A DNA stretch of 64,000 bases from Escherichia coli. GTDB taxonomy: Bacteria; Pseudomonadota; Gammaproteobacteria; Enterobacterales; Enterobacteriaceae. Below, one piece after another: positions 2,313-38,818 of the stretch. Location of the stretch: the NCBI RefSeq assembly GCF_044324785.1, contig NZ_CP172127.1, one strand, 5' to 3'. The position numbers and the translations under genes were made by a program. Each line of letters opens with the position of its first letter. The stretch's first letter is position 1. The notes beneath the pieces were generated by a model. That model was not told where the DNA came from and did no database searches. It saw nothing but the letters and a program-made list of their open reading frames with translations.

Positions 2313-3286
2313 GTTGGATATCACCGGAACTGATTGAGATCCTGCTGACCATCCTCAAAGCGGTGGTGATCCTACTGGTGGTTGTCACCTGTGGGGCATT
2401 CATGAGCTTTGGCGAACGTCGCCTGCTGGGTCTGTTCCAGAACCGTTACGGACCTAACCGTGTTGGCTGGGGCGGTTCGCTCCAGCTGGTTGCGGACATG
2501 ATCAAAATGTTCTTTAAAGAAGACTGGATCCCGAAATTCTCGGATCGCGTCATCTTTACCCTGGCACCGATGATTGCCTTTACCTCGCTGCTGCTGGCCT
2601 TTGCGATTGTGCCAGTCAGCCCAGGTTGGGTGGTTGCCGACCTGAACATCGGGATTTTGTTCTTCCTGATGATGGCAGGTCTGGCGGTTTACGCGGTGCT
2701 GTTTGCGGGCTGGTCAAGTAACAACAAATACTCGCTGCTGGGTGCGATGCGTGCTTCTGCGCAGACCCTGAGCTACGAAGTGTTCCTCGGGCTTTCCCTG
2801 ATGGGCGTGGTGGCGCAGGCCGGTTCATTCAACATGACCGACATCGTCAATAGCCAGGCGCATGTGTGGAACGTCATCCCGCAATTCTTTGGTTTTATTA
2901 CCTTTGCCATCGCGGGCGTGGCGGTGTGTCACCGTCACCCGTTTGACCAGCCGGAAGCCGAGCAGGAACTGGCGGATGGTTACCACATTGAATATTCCGG
3001 TATGAAGTTCGGTCTGTTCTTCGTGGGTGAGTACATCGGGATTGTGACCATCTCTGCACTGATGGTGACGCTGTTCTTCGGTGGCTGGCAAGGCCCGTTG
3101 TTACCGCCATTCATCTGGTTCGCGCTGAAAACCGCGTTCTTTATGATGATGTTTATTTTGATTCGTGCGTCGTTACCGCGTCCGCGTTATGACCAGGTAA
3201 TGTCCTTCGGCTGGAAAATCTGCCTGCCGCTGACGCTGATCAACTTGCTGGTAACGGCGGCTGTCATTCTCTGGCAGGCGCAATAA
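2309..3286 (+). CDS. nuoH: NADH:quinone oxidoreductase subunit H (membrane, ND1 homolog), 325 aa
   Basis: ORF track 2309..3286; hydrophobic polytopic protein; operon position. Confidence 0.95.
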
Positions 3287-32041: not shown

Positions 32042-33244
32042 ATGTTAAAAGTGGAAATGCTATCCACCGGGGATGAAGTGTTACACGGGCAAATCGTTGA
32101 CACTAACGCTGCCTGGCTGGCCGATTTTTTCTTTCATCAGGGGTTGCCATTATCTCGCCGCAATACGGTGGGGGATAACCTTGATGACTTAGTCACCATT
32201 CTTCGCGAACGTAGTCAGCACGCCGATGTGCTGATCGTTAACGGCGGGCTGGGACCGACCAGTGATGATTTAAGCGCACTCGCCGCTGCGACAGCAAAAG
32301 GTGAAGGCCTGGTGTTGCATGAAGCCTGGCTCAAAGAGATGGAACGCTATTTCCACGAACGTGGACGAGTAATGGCACCGAGCAACCGTAAACAAGCGGA
32401 GCTACCTGCCAGTGCTGAATTTATCAGTAACCCGGTAGGCACCGCCTGTGGTTTTGCCGTGCAGCTTAATCGTTGCCTGATGTTCTTTACCCCCGGCGTA
32501 CCGTCAGAATTTAAGGTGATGGTCGAGCACGAAATCCTGCCGCGCCTGCGCGAGCGTTTTTCTTTACCACAGCCGCCGGTTTGTCTGCGTTTAACTACCT
32601 TTGGTCGTTCGGAAAGCGATCTGGCACAAAGCCTGGACACTCTACAACTGCCGCCGGGGGTAACAATGGGCTATCGCTCCTCAATGCCTATCATCGAACT
32701 GAAACTCACCGGACCGGCAAGCGAGCAACAGGCGATGGAAAAACTGTGGCTGGACGTTAAACGTGTTGCCGGACAGAGCGTGATTTTCGAAGGCACCGAA
32801 GGACTGCCCGCGCAGATCAGTCGCGAATTGCAAAACCGCCAGTTCAGCCTGACGTTGAGCGAGCAATTCACCGGCGGTTTATTGGCTTTGCAACTTTCTC
32901 GCGCAGGTGCTCCATTGCTGGCGTGTGAAGTGGTTCCTTCACAGGAAGAAACCCTGGCGCAAACGGCGCACTGGATTACAGAACGGCGGGCCAACCATTT
33001 TGCCGGGCTGGCACTGGCTGTTTCTGGTTTCGAGAACGAACATCTCAACTTTGCGCTAGCCACGCCAGACGGCACTTTCGCTCTGCGTGTGCGTTTCAGC
33101 ACTACGCGCTACAGCCTGGCTATCCGTCAGGAAGTGTGCGCAATGATGGCACTGAATATGCTGCGCCGTTGGTTAAACGGCCAGGACATCGCCAGTGAGC
33201 ATGGCTGGATTGAGGTTGTTGAGTCCATGACCTTATCTGTCTGA
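32042..33244 (+). CDS. yfaY: CinA-like (MoCF-biosynthesis domain) protein YfaY, 400 aa
   Basis: ORF track; translation recognised as YfaY. Confidence 0.88.
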   Translation: MLKVEMLSTGDEVLHGQIVDTNAAWLADFFFHQGLPLSRRNTVGDNLDDLVTILRERSQHADVLIVNGGLGPTSDDLSALAAATAKGEGLVLHEAWLKEMERYFHERGRVMAPSNRKQAELPASAEFISNPVGTACGFAVQLNRCLMFFTPGVPSEFKVMVEHEILPRLRERFSLPQPPVCLRLTTFGRSESDLAQSLDTLQLPPGVTMGYRSSMPIIELKLTGPASEQQAMEKLWLDVKRVAGQSVIFEGTEGLPAQISRELQNRQFSLTLSEQFTGGLLALQLSRAGAPLLACEVVPSQEETLAQTAHWITERRANHFAGLALAVSGFENEHLNFALATPDGTFALRVRFSTTRYSLAIRQEVCAMMALNMLRRWLNGQDIASEHGWIEVVESMTLSV

Positions 33245-33463
33245 TTCCGCCACTCTGTGCCGGTTTACTGCACCGGCACATCCCCCCTCCGGCAAAATTT
33301 GTCCAACCTGTTGTACTCAATAAGAAAAAATCCGTGCGCTAATTCACAAATTTGTGCGTAATTTCTCCAGTCCGCTGGACGAGGAGCGGGATTTGATGCG
33401 CTTCACAATTTTACTCCCCCTGAGCAACGAGACTGATTCCAGTATCTAAGACTGGAGTCCAGT

Positions 33464-34246
33464 ATGTTGGAATCAAGCAAAGTTCCCGCCCTGACACGGG
33501 CTATTGATATTCTCAATTTGATTGCCCGCATTGGCCCCTGTAGTGCTGCGACGATCATTGACACATTAGGGATCCCTAAAAGCACGGCCTATTTGCTGCT
33601 TAATGAACTCAGGCGTCAGCGTTTTCTTAGCCTTGATCACCAGGAAAATTTTTGTTTGTGGACCAAGCTGGTGGAGCTTTCCGGTCATGCGTTAAGCAAG
33701 ATGGATCTCCGGGAACTGGCTCGACCGCGTTTGACGCAACTGATGGATACCACCGGGCTGTTATGTCACCTGGGGATTATTGATAACGGCAGCGCTTATT
33801 ACATTTTGAAAGTGGAGTCATCAGCCACTATCAGCGTGCGTTCCCATGAAGGAAAAAGCCTTTCGCTTTATCGCTCTGGAATAGGTAAATGCCTACTTGC
33901 CTGGCAACCTGCAGCTGTACAGCAAAGTATTATCGAAGGGCTGGTCTGGGAGCAGGCGACACCCACAACGATTACTCATCCACAGCAACTTCACGAAGAA
34001 CTGGCGCGTATTCGCCGCCAGGGCTGGAGCTATGACAACGGCGAAGATTACGCCGATGTCCGTTGTGTCGCTGCGCCGGTGTTTAACGCCAATAACGAGC
34101 TTACCGCTGCGATCTCGGTGGTCGGTACCCGCTTACAAATCAATGAAGAATACCGTGATTATCTGGCGGGCAAGGCCATTGCCTGCGCCAGGGATATTTC
34201 ACGTCTGTTGGGATGGAAAAGTCCCTTTGACTTACAGGCCTCATAA
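33464..34246 (+). CDS. rhmR: IclR-family transcriptional regulator of L-rhamnonate catabolism, 260 aa
   Basis: ORF track; N-terminal HTH and IclR effector domain; precedes rhmDTA. Confidence 0.88.
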
Positions 34247-34260
34247 CAATGGAGAACATC

Positions 34261-35466
34261 ATGACCCTACCAAAAATCAAACAGGTTCGCGCCTGGTTTA
34301 CTGGCGGTGCGACAGCAGAAAAAGGCGCTGGCGGCGGTGATTATCACGACCAGGGGGCGAATCACTGGATAGACGATCATATTGCCACCCCGATGAGTAA
34401 ATACCGCGATTATGAGCAGTCACGCCAGTCATTTGGCATTAACGTTCTTGGCACGTTGATTGTTGAAGTCGAAGCAGAAAACGGCCAGACCGGATTCGCC
34501 GTTTCGACAGCCGGTGAAATGGGCTGTTTTATTGTCGAAAAACACCTTAACCGTTTCATTGAGGGTAAATGTGTCAGTGATATCAAACTGATCCACGATC
34601 AAATGCTCAATGCCACCCTGTATTACTCCGGCTCTGGTGGCCTGGTGATGAACACGATTTCCTGTGTCGATCTGGCTCTGTGGGATCTGTTCGGCAAAGT
34701 GGTCGGGCTTCCGGTTTATAAACTTTTAGGCGGCGCAGTTCGTGATGAGATTCAGTTCTACGCCACAGGTGCGCGTCCGGATCTGGCAAAAGAGATGGGC
34801 TTTATCGGTGGCAAAATGCCGACGCACTGGGGGCCACATGATGGCGATGCGGGGATCCGCAAAGATGCCGCTATGGTCGCGGATATGCGTGAAAAATGCG
34901 GTGAGGATTTCTGGTTAATGCTCGACTGCTGGATGAGTCAGGACGTGAACTATGCCACCAAACTGGCCCACGCTTGCGCGCCCTATAACCTGAAATGGAT
35001 CGAAGAGTGCCTGCCGCCACAGCAGTATGAAGGTTATCGCGAACTGAAACGCAACGCGCCAGTCGGAATGATGGTCACCAGCGGTGAGCATCACGGCACA
35101 CTGCAATCTTTCCGTACGCTTTCAGAAACCGGCATCGACATTATGCAGCCGGATGTTGGCTGGTGCGGTGGGTTAACCACGCTGGTGGAAATTGCCGCAA
35201 TCGCCAAATCCAGAGGGCAACTGGTGGTGCCGCACGGTTCGTCTGTTTACTCTCACCATGCGGTGATCACCTTCACCAATACGCCATTCAGCGAATTCCT
35301 GATGACCAGCCCGGATTGTTCAACGATGCGTCCGCAATTTGATCCGATTCTGCTTAATGAGCCAGTGCCGGTGAATGGTCGTATTCATAAATCAGTGCTT
35401 GATAAACCCGGTTTCGGCGTCGAACTCAATCGTGACTGCAATTTGAAACGCCCCTACAGCCACTAA
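34261..35466 (+). CDS. rhmD: L-rhamnonate dehydratase (enolase superfamily), 401 aa
   Basis: ATG for [13 protein letters not shown] within track ORF 34249..35466. Confidence 0.9.
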
Positions 35467-35522
35467 TCATTCCGGGCGTTGCTGTGACAACGGTAACGCC
35501 CACACATTCTAAGGAGCTTTTT

Positions 35523-36812
35523 ATGAGCACCGCTTTGCTTGACGCCGTGGTGAAGAAAAACCGTGCGCGTTTAATTCCGTTTATGTTGGCGCTGTATGTG
35601 CTGGCGTTTCTCGACCGTTCGAATATCGGTTTTGCCAAACAGACCTACCAGATTGATACCGGGCTGAGTAATGAAGCTTATGCGCTGGGAGCAGGCATTT
35701 TCTTTGTTGTATATGCGTTTCTGGGTGTTCCGGCGAATCTTTTGATGCGCAAACTGGGGGCAAGAACCTGGATTGGTACGACAACACTGCTGTGGGGATT
35801 TCTTTCGGCAGCCATGGCATGGGCCGATACTGAAGCGAAATTTCTGATCGTTCGTACTCTGCTTGGTGCTGCGGAGGCCGGGTTCTTCCCTGGTATGATT
35901 TATCTCACCTCGCAATGGTTTCCGCAGCGTAATCGCGCCAGCATTATGGGGTTGTTCTATATGGGCGCACCGCTGGCGTTAACACTGGGATCACCGCTTT
36001 CCGGCGCGCTGCTGGAGATGCATGGATTTATGGGGCATCCCGGCTGGTTCTGGATGTTTGTGATTGAAGGATTGCTGGCAGTCGGCGCTGGGGTATTCAC
36101 ATTCTTTTGGCTTGATGACACACCGGAGCAGGCACGTTTTCTGAGTAAACAAGAAAAAACGTTGCTTATCAATCAACTGGCAAGTGAAGAACAACAGAAA
36201 GTGACTTCTCGATTGAGCGATGCGCTGCGTAATGGCCGAGTCTGGCAACTGGCGATTATCTACCTGACCATTCAGGTGGCGGTTTACGGATTAATTTTCT
36301 TCCTGCCGACCCAGGTTGCTGCATTGCTGGGGACAAAAGTGGGCTTTACGGCGTCGGTGGTCACCGCCATTCCGTGGGTTGCGGCCTTGTTTGGGACCTG
36401 GCTTATTCCGCGCTATTCCGATAAAACCGGCGAACGGCGTAATGTCGCAGCGCTGACATTACTGGCGGCGGGCATTGGTATTGGTCTCTCCGGGCTGCTT
36501 TCTCCAGTACTGGCGATCGTAGCGCTGTGTGTTGCAGCCATCGGGTTCATTGCCGTGCAGCCGGTGTTCTGGACGATGCCGACACAACTTCTTTCCGGTA
36601 CGGCGCTGGCTGCGGGGATTGGTTTTATAAACCTGTTTGGTGCAGTGGGCGGGTTTATTGCCCCGATCCTGCGCGTGAAAGCAGAAACGTTATTTTCCAG
36701 CGATGCGGCGGGATTACTGACGCTGGCAGCGGTGGCGGTCATCGGTTCGCTGATTATTTTCACTCTGCGTGTAAATCGCACTGTTGCGCAGACCGACGTG
36801 GCACATCATTAA
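35523..36812 (+). CDS. rhmT: MFS L-rhamnonate transporter, 429 aa
   Basis: ATG for MSTALLDAVVKK preceded by taaggag RBS; track ORF starts 13 codons upstream. Confidence 0.88.
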   Translation: MSTALLDAVVKKNRARLIPFMLALYVLAFLDRSNIGFAKQTYQIDTGLSNEAYALGAGIFFVVYAFLGVPANLLMRKLGARTWIGTTTLLWGFLSAAMAWADTEAKFLIVRTLLGAAEAGFFPGMIYLTSQWFPQRNRASIMGLFYMGAPLALTLGSPLSGALLEMHGFMGHPGWFWMFVIEGLLAVGAGVFTFFWLDDTPEQARFLSKQEKTLLINQLASEEQQKVTSRLSDALRNGRVWQLAIIYLTIQVAVYGLIFFLPTQVAALLGTKVGFTASVVTAIPWVAALFGTWLIPRYSDKTGERRNVAALTLLAAGIGIGLSGLLSPVLAIVALCVAAIGFIAVQPVFWTMPTQLLSGTALAAGIGFINLFGAVGGFIAPILRVKAETLFSSDAAGLLTLAAVAVIGSLIIFTLRVNRTVAQTDVAHH

Positions 36813-36828
36813 ATAGTTAAGGAACACG

Positions 36829-37632
36829 ATGAACGCATTATTAACCAATCCCTTTAAAGAACGTTTACGCAAGGGCGAAGTGCAAATTGGTCTGTGGTTA
36901 AGCTCGACTACTTCTTATATGGCAGAAATTGCCGCCACTTCCGGTTATGACTGGTTGCTGATTGACGGGGAGCACGCGCCTAACACCATTCAGGATCTTT
37001 ATCACCAGCTACAGGCGGTAGCACCCTATGCCAGCCAACCCGTGATCCGTCCGGTGGAAGGCAGTAAATCGCTGATTAAACAAGTCCTGGATATTGGCGT
37101 GCAAACTCTACTGATCCCGATGGTCGATACTGCCGATCAGGCACGTCAGGTGGTGTCTGCCACGCGCTATCCTCCCTACGGTGAGCGTGGTGTCGGGGCC
37201 AGTGTGGCACGGGCTGCTCGCTGGGGACGCATTGAGAATTACATGGCGCAAGTCAACGATTCGCTTTGTCTGTTGGTGCAGGTGGAAAGTAAAACAGCAC
37301 TGGATAACCTGGACGAAATCCTCGACGTCGAAGGGATTGACGGCGTGTTTATTGGACCTGCGGATCTTTCTGCGTCGTTGGGCTACCCGGATAACGCCGG
37401 GCACCCGGAAGTGCAGCGAATTATTGAAACCAGTATTCGGCGGATCCGTGCTGCGGGTAAAGCGGCTGGTTTTCTGGCTGTGGCTCCTGATATGGCGCAG
37501 CAATGCCTGGCGTGGGGAGCGAACTTTGTCGCTGTTGGCGTTGACACGATGCTCTACAGCGATGCCCTGGATCAACGACTGGCGATGTTTAAATCAGGCA
37601 AAAATGGGCCACGCATAAAAGGTAGTTATTGA
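36829..37632 (+). CDS. rhmA: 2-keto-3-deoxy-L-rhamnonate aldolase (HpcH/HpaI family), 267 aa
   Basis: ORF track; translation recognised as RhmA. Confidence 0.92.
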
Positions 37633-37672
37633 TATCAAAGGCCCATGGGGATCGGCTGTGGGCCTGTGTTAA

Positions 37673-37846
37673 TTAGTGGTTATTCGCTGCCAGATCGGCT
37701 TCGCTTAGCTGGGTGGCCGCGAGCACCAGGTCACGATCAATGCCCTGTTCCAGCATGCGCAAAGCAATTTTAATGGCTTGTTCATGCATGCCTTCCTGCC
37801 AGCCAATTTGGTGTCCTTCCTGCCGTAGCCGTTCAGCAATAGTCAT
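37673..37846 (-). CDS. ypaA: Small protein YpaA, 57 aa, homologous to the C-terminal tail of RpnB (RpnS-like, DUF4351)
   Basis: Manual translation [60 protein letters not shown] near-duplicate of the rpnB 3' end; below the 60-aa track cutoff. Confidence 0.7.
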   Translation of the reverse strand: MTIAERLRQEGHQIGWQEGMHEQAIKIALRMLEQGIDRDLVLAATQLSEADLAANNH

Positions 37847-37858
37847 TAATCTCTCCTT

Positions 37859-38818
37859 TTAATAACAGTTCGGAATATCAGCATCAGTGAGTTGGGTTGT
37901 CGCCAGCACAATCTCACGTTCAAAGCCCTGTTCCAGCATGCGCAAGGCAATTTTAATGGCTTGTTCATGCATACCTTCTACTTTGCCTTTCTGCAAACCC
38001 TCCAACTTCCCCTCCTGCCAACCTTCAATCTTACCCTCCTGCCAGCCAATTTGATGCCCTTCCTGCCGCAGCCGTTCAGCAATAGTCATTAATCTCTCCT
38101 TTTGTAGTGGTGAACGTTCGGCAATCTCCTCAATAAAACGGGTGAAACGGGAGGTATCGCCGCATTGCAGCAGATAATTAAACAGCGTTTGTAGCTGGCT
38201 GTCATTAGTGAAGCCTCTAACCAAAAGCGTGGTGATCCTGTCGACCATACCGATTAAATCGCGGTCGCGAATATGCTTTTGAATCAGTTCAAGCAGAGCT
38301 ATACGCCGATGTTGCATGATCTCATCGTCAGGTACGATGGTGATATCCACCAACGGAAAAGCTTCGGTGTACAACTGCCGGGCAAGTTGCGGATCGTCAA
38401 ACTCATCCAGCCAGTTGAGTGAGTACGGGTAAGGCGAGGTTTCGCCATGATAAAACAGCAACGGCACCACCAGCGGGACTCTGTCATAGCCTTTGTCCAG
38501 GTGACGCTGCATGGCGGCAGTGGCATAGCGCATTAGCCGAAAAGCCATATTCTTTTCTGCAGAGCTTTGATGTTCAATCACGCAGTAGATATAACCGTCA
38601 CCGTCGCTGGTTTCCACGGACCACAAAACATCCGAGTAGTAAGCGCGTAAACTTTTTTCAATAAAACTGGTGGGTTCCAGGCGTAAGGTTTGCAGGTTAC
38701 AAAGCTTGCGCAGTGGTTCTGGTAAATGTATTTCGAGAAAATCCCGTGCGGTTTCGGGTGTGAACATAAAAGTTTTAAATACCGCATCATGCGGGGAGGA
38801 GGTTGTTGATTCGGTCAT
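37859..38818 (-). CDS. rpnB: Rpn-family (YhgA-like, PD-(D/E)XK) recombination-promoting nuclease RpnB, 319 aa in longest frame; true start may be the internal MFTPET methionine
   Basis: ORF track; transposase_31-like N-terminal domain; C-terminal GWQEG-K-x-EG repeats followed by an RpnS-like tail. Confidence 0.85.
37985..38060 (-). repeat. In-frame tandem peptide repeat ([23 protein letters not shown]) in the rpnB C-terminal region
   Basis: Plus strand shows reiterated ctcctgccagcc / cttccc units; translation shows repeated (W)QEGK(I/L)EG. Confidence 0.6.

Follow-up and report, generated by a model that had tools for sequence, protein, structure and literature searches.

The L-rhamnonate operon of Escherichia coli, known as rhm or yfaXWVU, is one of the regulons of this species that are still without experimental data. 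In the 64-kb stretch of genomic DNA analysed here (referred to below as the window), the genes lie in the order yfaY, then rhmR(yfaX)-rhmD-rhmT-rhmA, and rhmD, rhmT and rhmA (34249-37632) are the presumed targets of the regulator encoded by rhmR (Table 1). A 456-nt query taken around the start of rhmR finds a match of at least 95% identity in 5,215 of 5,426 complete E. coli genomes, annotated in RefSeq as yfaX, an IclR family transcriptional regulator; in strain MG1655 the yfaX ATG is at position 2,362,211 on the minus strand. The same rhm gene order is found in Tolumonas, in Vibrio and in an uncultured homologue of 59% identity (L043), and Brenneria has it without the transporter gene.

For this regulator (b2248) and its orthologues, three 18-bp sites have already been predicted computationally by Suvorova and Gelfand (2021, Front Microbiol 12:675815, Supplementary Table 2; PMC8222616). 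They are located at -163 (TGTCCAaCCtGTTGTACT), -99 (TcTCCAGtCtGcTGgACg) and -7 (aGTCCAGtatGTTGgAaT), and belong to the motif class termed 'group 1', GKTYCRY-W3-4-RYGRAMC. The -7 site, listed as -7 or -9, is identical in E. coli, Shigella, Citrobacter, Enterobacter, Klebsiella and Tolumonas (PMC8222616). Both locus and regulator are the same as ours, and the three sites correspond to those designated S163, S99 and S7 in Table 1. A search of the literature for E. coli RhmR returned no DNA-binding (EMSA, footprint, ChIP or SELEX), expression or start-site experiments. The name RhmR mostly refers there to the unrelated LacI-type RhmR of Chloroflexus.

Table 1. Genes and observed or predicted features of the rhm locus, in window coordinates
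Feature	Position	Strand	Basis
yfaY	32042-33244		open reading frame
S163, distal predicted RhmR site, TGTCCAACCTGTTGTACT	33300-33317		published -163 site; nearly invariant in 29 species; PWM 21.5, rank 2 of 63,983
CRP-like site 1, CGTGCGCTAATTCACA	33333-33348		2 mismatches to TGTGA-N6-TCACA; putative assignment
S99, middle predicted RhmR site, TCTCCAGTCCGCTGGACG	33364-33381		published -99 site; PWM 17.7
CRP-like site 2, TTTGATGCGCTTCACA, centre 33399.5	33392-33407		1 mismatch; TGA-N6-TCACA invariant in 29 species
Putative promoter element, -10-like hexamer GAGACT	33429-33434	+	nAnAnT pattern in orthologues
H1, extra predicted half-site, TGATTCCAGTAT	33434-33445	+	half-site PWM 10.3, p=2.3e-4; not in training set
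S27, weak 18-bp site in canonical register, 20 bp upstream of S7	33436-33453		PWM 4.1, rank 24 of 63,983
Inverted repeat CCAGT-N7-ACTGG	33439-33455		chance frequency; right arm unconserved, without compensatory change
Predicted transcription start	33441	+	geometry only; would place CRP-like site 2 at -41.5
Shine-Dalgarno GGAG, 6 nt 5' of rhmR ATG	33454-33457	+	sequence; invariant in 29 aligned species
H2, left half-site of S7	33454-33464		
S7, main predicted RhmR operator palindrome, AGTCCAGTATGTTGGAAT, 18 bp, centred on ATG	33456-33473		published -7 site; PWM 22.2, window maximum
rhmR (yfaX), IclR-family regulator, 260 aa	33464-34246	+	open reading frame, RefSeq annotation; Pfam HTH_IclR and IclR_C on homologues
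H3, right half-site of S7	33465-33475		
rhmD, L-rhamnonate dehydratase	34249-35466	+	NCBIfam equivalog match
rhmT, MFS transporter	35484-36812	+	MFS transporter match
rhmA, 2-keto-3-deoxy-L-rhamnonate aldolase	36829-37632	+	NCBIfam equivalog match

Repeats and conserved DNA at the rhmR start codon

A preliminary description of this DNA proposed that an inverted repeat, CCAGT-N7-ACTGG, with a flanking direct repeat, TCCAGTAT, forms an IclR-type autoregulatory operator at the start of rhmR. The stretch concerned (33438-33466) reads TCCAGTATCTAAGACTGGAGTCCAGTATG, and both repeats are present where they were reported: CCAGT at 33439-33443 and ACTGG at 33451-33455 enclose a 7-nt spacer, the direct repeat occurs at 33438-33445 and again at 33458-33465, and the interval includes the start codon itself (ATG, 33464-33466). 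With a repeat finder, the inverted repeat extends to GATTCCAGT/ACTGGAGTC, complementary at 8 of 9 positions, and the direct repeat to GA(T/G)TCCAGTAT, an 11-nt sequence repeated at a spacing of 20 bp. An outer inverted pair is also found, TGATTCCA at 33434-33441 with TGGAATCA at 33468-33475.

As bare patterns, such repeats are common. The window contains 684 perfect inverted repeats with 5-bp arms and loops of 3-10 nt (10.7/kb), compared with 552 +/- 22 in Markov-simulated sequence (~8.6/kb). Inverted repeats of 9 nt with one mismatch number 116 against 67 +/- 11 simulated, and exact 8-mers repeated within 30 nt number 63 against ~26. The extended inverted repeat and the 8-mer direct repeat thus belong to classes that are enriched only about two-fold, and the inverted repeat taken as a pattern is not beyond chance; any significance has to come from conservation across species. 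By comparison of orthologous sequences, the left arm and the direct repeat are conserved, and the right arm, ACTGG, is not.

We fetched 38 orthologous loci, one genome per species, of which 29, all enterobacterial, were aligned, and also considered four distant orthologues that share the rhmR-rhmD context (Tolumonas, Vibrio mangrovi, Brenneria and L043). In the 29 species, five conserved blocks stand amid freely varying sequence: the -163 site, TGTGC-N6-TCACA, the -99 site, an invariant TGA-N6-TCACA, and positions 33430-33475. The core of S99, TCCA-N6-TGGA, is kept in 26 of the 29, being absent from Prodigiosinella, Cedecea and Pantoea. The last block, 46 nt running from A-ACTGATTCCAGTAT through GGAGTCCAGTATGTTGGAATCA, is nearly invariant, and the ~20 nt that precede it vary freely. 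Variation within it is confined to 33446-33453, where two of the five right-arm positions lie. C33452 is changed to T in 10 of the 29 species and T33453 to C or A in 4, so that 14 species vary in all, and none of the 29 aligned sequences has a compensating change in the left arm or a double change. The inverted repeat is perfect in Escherichia, most Citrobacter, Intestinirhabdus and Atlantibacter. In the four distant orthologues its arms are complementary at only 0-3 of 5 positions, and a TGATTCCA-like half-site still lies exactly 20 bp upstream of GGAGTCCA.

The second copy of the direct repeat is the left half of S7, which the interval originally singled out overlaps only in part. The group-1 operator is defined by an 18-bp core (22 bp with flanks) in which the TYC and GRA cores lie 8 nt apart. 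Judged from its sequence and position, S7 qualifies as such an operator, as a conserved 18-bp palindrome across the start of an operon that contains an IclR gene; it matches the degenerate consensus at 13 of 18 positions and is near-invariant in 33 orthologues. A symmetric 18-bp position weight matrix (PWM), built from the published sites and run over 63,983 windows, ranks the three sites 1-3, with a best background score of 10.7; these ranks are partly circular, since the matrix was trained on the published sites themselves.

A further indication of constraint comes from the coding sequence. The right half of S7 encodes the beginning of the protein (ATG TTG GAA TCA), and codons 2-4 of rhmR are frozen at their synonymous positions, with TTG in 32 of 33 orthologues, GAA in 33 of 33 and TCA in 33 of 33; elsewhere among the first 40 codons, Leu and Ser positions use 2-5 different codons. 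In Vibrio, ATT replaces the rhmR ATG and the start moves to the next TTG, and the palindrome is kept. Because synonymous sites are frozen and Vibrio retains the palindrome without the ATG, the constraint lies on the DNA (or RNA) sequence, and the protein does not account for it. Some of the conservation beside the start codon could still reflect the demands of translation initiation.

Half-sites and a putative promoter upstream of S7

A scan of the intergenic region with an 11-nt half-site PWM, at a threshold of p=1e-3, returned eight matches: the six published half-sites, H1 (TGATTCCAGTA, 10.3) and a further half-site, H4, which is the reverse complement of the right arm of the inverted repeat (GGACTCCAGTC) and just passes the threshold at 7.7. 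H1 contains the left arm of the inverted repeat together with the first copy of the direct repeat. It agrees with H2, as a direct repeat, at 10 of 12 positions, and with the reverse complement of H3 at 10-11 of 12 positions in most orthologues; its spacing from H2 is exactly 20 bp in 27 of 27 sequences examined. H1 scores equal those of true half-sites and are strong across Enterobacterales, reaching at least 8 in 16 of 20 orthologues scored, with weaker values in Tolumonas (5.0), Vibrio (6.8) and Brenneria (0.5). Neither H1 nor the inverted repeat is represented in the published list of sites (PMC8222616).

In the canonical 18-bp register, H1 forms the left half of the weak site S27. A match this good within +/-18-22 bp of S7 has p ~0.004, S27 scores as high as 11.5 in Phytobacter and Kosakonia, and G33450 and A33451 are invariant in the 29 species. 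The two halves are unequal, the left being strong and the right degenerate, and the canonical right half is poor in every species (median -4.3). We therefore dropped S27 as a full second palindrome and describe H1 as an orphan half-site.

Two CRP-like sites lie further upstream, site 1 being 59 bp upstream of site 2. CRP-like matches in the whole window occur at chance frequency (24 found, 26 expected). Site 2 belongs to a set of just 4 matches in the 64 kb that have no more than one mismatch, and site 1 is kept as TGTGC-N6-TCACA in most genera. yfaX appears in a list of CRP targets obtained by genomic SELEX (PMC3105977). Between the end of the invariant TCACA (33407) and the first base of H1 (33434) lie 26 nt in 23 of 24 scorable orthologues, among them Vibrio, Tolumonas and Brenneria; the sequence of this spacer is unconstrained despite its fixed length. 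Next to H1 stands a hexamer of the pattern nAnAnT, which is in register (the six bases before GATTCCA) in 38 of 40 orthologues and one base further upstream in Cedecea and L043 (TATACT). It takes the forms AACACT, CACACT, GAGACT, AATACT and AAAACT (the last in Brenneria), is AATAAT in Tolumonas and Vibrio, and comes near to the consensus in three orthologues (L040, L041 and L043), in the last of which it is paired with TTGCAA 17 bp upstream. The E. coli version, GAGACT, matches the -10 consensus at only 3 of 6 positions.

In class II CRP-dependent promoters, CRP is centred at -41.5. If the hexamer at 33429-33434 serves as the -10 element, transcription would start at about 33441 and CRP-like site 2 would fall at exactly this distance, which suggests a class II CRP-dependent promoter; the resemblance extends to the placement of TGA-N6-TCACA 21 nt upstream of the -10-like hexamer and to the lack of a -35 element. 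A scan of 33150-33600 for consensus sigma-70 promoters found none, a result that is uninformative for an activator-dependent promoter and is to be expected if the promoter is of that kind. The sigma-54 pattern has no discriminating power here (339 matches, 346 expected); one match with a single mismatch lies at 33147-33162.

Composite operator model and competing explanations

The anatomy and conservation of the region are probably best explained by a composite RhmR operator of ~42 bp (33434-33475), made up of S7 and H1, that represses a class II CRP promoter. S7, with its half-sites H2 and H3, would form the core, and H1 would act as a third strong half-site, a direct repeat of H2 placed 20 bp, or two helical turns, upstream of it. 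H1 and H2/H3 would most likely be bound from the same side of the helix, by a tetramer of RhmR or by two dimers that cooperate. Relative to the putative start, bound RhmR would cover about -7 to +35, with H1 at -7 to +5 and S7 at +16 to +33, the standard position for a repressor, and would thereby block RNA polymerase. The rhmR-rhmD-rhmT-rhmA operon would then be repressed, autorepression included, and RhmR would be released by an effector, for which L-rhamnonate or an intermediate of the pathway is the presumed candidate. Repression is itself the presumed direction, as several members of the IclR family are activators. Cooperativity, looping or activation may be contributed by the sites at -99 and -163. 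The position of the operator, with site centres at -19.5 and +0.5 from the gene start and thus 20 bp apart, appears to match family-wide preferences: IclR sites are most often centred at -22 and at -3 to +1 relative to gene starts, and 94 orthologous groups have sites in tandem at a distance of 18-22 bp (PMC8222616).

The most direct competitor is the original proposal in its literal form, in which CCAGT-N7-ACTGG, or its extension, is itself the palindrome bound by one RhmR dimer. Both of its arms resemble half-sites in E. coli (H1 at 10.3, H4 at 7.7), the repeat is perfect in several genera, and H4 scores near 7 in most Enterobacteriaceae. Its geometry is that of a different kind of site: from H1 to H4 the footprint is 27 bp long (13 nt separate TCC from GGA), as against 22 bp in each of the three canonical sites nearby, so that its half-sites are 5 bp, or half a helical turn, further apart and cannot be bound as canonical sites are. 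Nor can H4 and H2 be occupied together, because they overlap by 7 bp (33454-33460). H4 also falls to 0-2 in five enterobacterial species and to about zero or below in the distant orthologues (Tolumonas 0.1, Vibrio -17, Brenneria -0.4, L043 -7.8). The changes recorded above at T33453, which is the T of the TGGA core and invariant in real sites, and at C33452, neither accompanied by compensation in the left arm, count further against it, as does the ~10/kb frequency of such repeats. Much of the H4 score is owed to the Shine-Dalgarno GGAG and the flank of H2, and the CCAGT/ACTGG palindrome would seem to be mostly a by-product, its left arm being H1 and its right arm an ACT under loose constraint, followed by the Shine-Dalgarno sequence and the left flank of H2. 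We consider binding of a dimer to this repeat rather unlikely. What stands of the preliminary description is a conserved predicted operator that overlaps the rhmR ATG, in which the direct repeat, set down there as flanking, carries the real signal; the palindrome that it put forward is not supported as the recognition unit.

Pairing in the mRNA leader could instead hide the ribosome-binding site and the start codon, and so limit translation of RhmR, either between H1 and the Shine-Dalgarno region (GAUUCCAGU/ACUGGAGUC, 9 bp with one G-U) or between H1 and AUGUUGGAAUCA (12 bp). The RNA of 33430-33480 folds at -15.9 kcal/mol (z=-2.5), a stability reached by 4 of 200 shuffled sequences, and the E. 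coli fold also has an inner ACUGG/CCAGU hairpin. RNAalifold retains the 12-bp helix in 18 species, and the 9-bp helix is 94% paired across species when G-U is counted, nine C-to-T changes giving G-U pairs. Against this, the 9-bp helix, the outer TGATTCCA/TGGAATCA helix and the RNAalifold consensus show no covariation across species (RNAalifold covariation term +0.07; no double changes in the 9-bp helix), so that conservation by itself accounts for the pairing. Kosakonia, Phytobacter, Tolumonas, Vibrio and L043 lack an intact 9-bp helix, and good folding is expected of any transcribed tandem palindromic operator. The motif is also present at -99 and -163, positions without any such role in pairing, and with a start near 33441 the greater part of the hairpin's 5' arm would not be transcribed. 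A regulatory role of the RNA fold is thus unlikely. It seems very unlikely, too, that RhmR alternates between two exclusive registers, H1/H4 and H2/H3, under control of the effector, or that the transcript of the operator doubles as a start-codon hairpin; a shift of register would uncover or cover the promoter and ribosome-binding region, and the hairpin would amount to autoregulation at two levels.

It might also be argued that the region has no regulatory function and is conserved for its ribosome-binding site and N-terminal codons alone, since the Shine-Dalgarno GGAG, the ATG and the first codons all lie inside the conserved block. We regard this as highly improbable: the conserved DNA reaches 30 nt beyond the ATG on its upstream side, taking in H1, and ends abruptly there, the 18-bp motif is found twice more upstream, and the synonymous freezing of codons 2-4 and the survival of the palindrome in Vibrio despite the loss of its ATG are foreign to such an account.

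Relation to known operators

The proposed arrangement of S7 and H1 resembles two types of IclR-family operator. In TtgV-type tandem operators, exemplified by the TtgV-operator structure (PDB 2XRO), tandem sites are described as bound by tetramers (PMC8222616). The likeness lies in the two centres 20 bp apart on the same face of the DNA, covering ~42 bp over the putative promoter and the gene start; the difference is that the upstream unit of RhmR has one good half-site, its canonical partner being degenerate. The three-box operators of PcaU, PobR and HmgR are described as a palindrome with an external direct repeat of a half-site, which in the case of PcaU is required for binding (PMC8222616). 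The palindrome H2/H3, with H1 as a direct repeat of the nearer half-site, is similar in layout, and the gap between H1 and the palindrome is about one helical turn of unconserved DNA. Their half-site sequences differ from those of RhmR, and H1 is a predicted half-site.

Since S7, the main site, was already predicted in print in 2021, its presence is no conceptual surprise, and the locus is the ordinary regulatory region of a small sugar-acid operon. Compared with the published regulog, our analysis, which is computational as well, would add the in-phase orphan half-site H1 at 20 bp upstream, the weaker constraint on the right arm of the inverted repeat, and a class II promoter model comprising the CRP/-10 geometry and a predicted start. 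If correct, these features would give the rhm operon its first defined operator and promoter architecture and would show cleanly how an IclR operator can join a palindrome to an orphan half-site in phase with it. They would also represent a routine gain in annotation for RegulonDB and EcoCyc curators and be useful in the design of L-rhamnonate biosensors.

One other palindrome in the intergenic region had been considered as the true operator. This perfect 12-bp sequence, CACAAATTTGTG (33345-33356), is specific to Escherichia and was dropped.

Loss of the rhm operon in E. coli and other Escherichia

In about 1,238 of the 5,215 complete E. coli genomes that match the 456-nt query around the rhmR start, the match is limited to the part of the query at 33245-33308, and another 211 complete E. 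coli genomes contain no match to the query. One of the genomes with the limited match was examined in detail, and in it homology restarts after 33308 at position 37171, within rhmA. The left end of this deletion is the centre of the -163 palindrome, a predicted RhmR site; half of the palindrome is lost, as are rhmR, rhmD, rhmT and the 5' portion of rhmA. At the junction, TTGTCCAAC(C) is joined to CTCCCTACGG, with a microhomology of 1-2 nt.

Separate, independent deletions of the operon were found in further Escherichia lineages by comparison with window positions 33531-38010. The segment 33610-37431 is absent from both Escherichia whittamii (L036) and E. sp. E1V33 (L037), and the locus of E. 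sp. MOD1-EC7003 (L038) has multiple gaps. The only Escherichia substitutions in the predicted operator across the rhmR start codon occur in two of these three decayed loci (GGAGTCCA to GGAATCCA and TGATTCCA to TGATTTCA), consistent with relaxed constraint following the loss of rhmR.

Features of the yfaY-rhmR region and the operon
Feature	Position	Strand	Remarks
Sigma-54-like site TGGCACTGAATATGCT	33147-33162	+	within yfaY 3' end; -24/-12 consensus, one mismatch
Perfect hairpin TGTGCCGGT-N7-ACCGGCACA	33256-33280		9-bp stem; directly 3' of yfaY stop codon; without T-tract
Deletion, 3,862 bp	33309-37170		one E. coli genome examined in detail
Perfect palindrome CACAAATTTGTG, 12 bp	33345-33356		overlaps right half of CRP-like site 1
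CTCCAGTC	33365-33372		left half of -99 site
GACTGGAG	33450-33457		includes Shine-Dalgarno sequence
rhmD ORF	34249-35466		counted from first ATG

Signals between yfaY and rhmR

Other genera have GC-rich hairpins of different sequence in the place of the hairpin behind yfaY; its structure is therefore kept and its sequence is not. This hairpin is probably the yfaY terminator, and as such suggests that rhmR is driven by its own promoter. The 12-bp palindrome is restricted to Escherichia, with a TCACATTTTT-type sequence there in other genera. Complementarity is perfect between the segment that bears the Shine-Dalgarno sequence and the left half of the -99 site, which lies 77 nt upstream of it; this is probably no more than a result of the similarity of each to an RhmR half-site.

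The neighbourhood of the sigma-54-like site has no evident gene for an enhancer-binding protein. Genomic SELEX with RpoN holoenzyme gave a peak of 34% intensity in the yfaX/yfaY spacer at position 2,360,468 (PMC8743547), which by our coordinate conversion corresponds to about position 33231 of the window.

Starts of rhmD and rhmR

Only 2 nt separate the rhmR stop codon from the first rhmD ATG, and there is therefore no space for a separate rhmD promoter. Counted from this ATG, rhmD encodes 405 amino acids, as against 401 in the MG1655 annotation (b2247, 1,206 nt).

In the Vibrio mangrovi locus (L041, positions 2990-3005), ATT is found where E. coli has the ATG of rhmR. The gene call there begins at the next TTG, and the predicted operator palindrome is kept (GGTCCAGTATTTTGGAAT).
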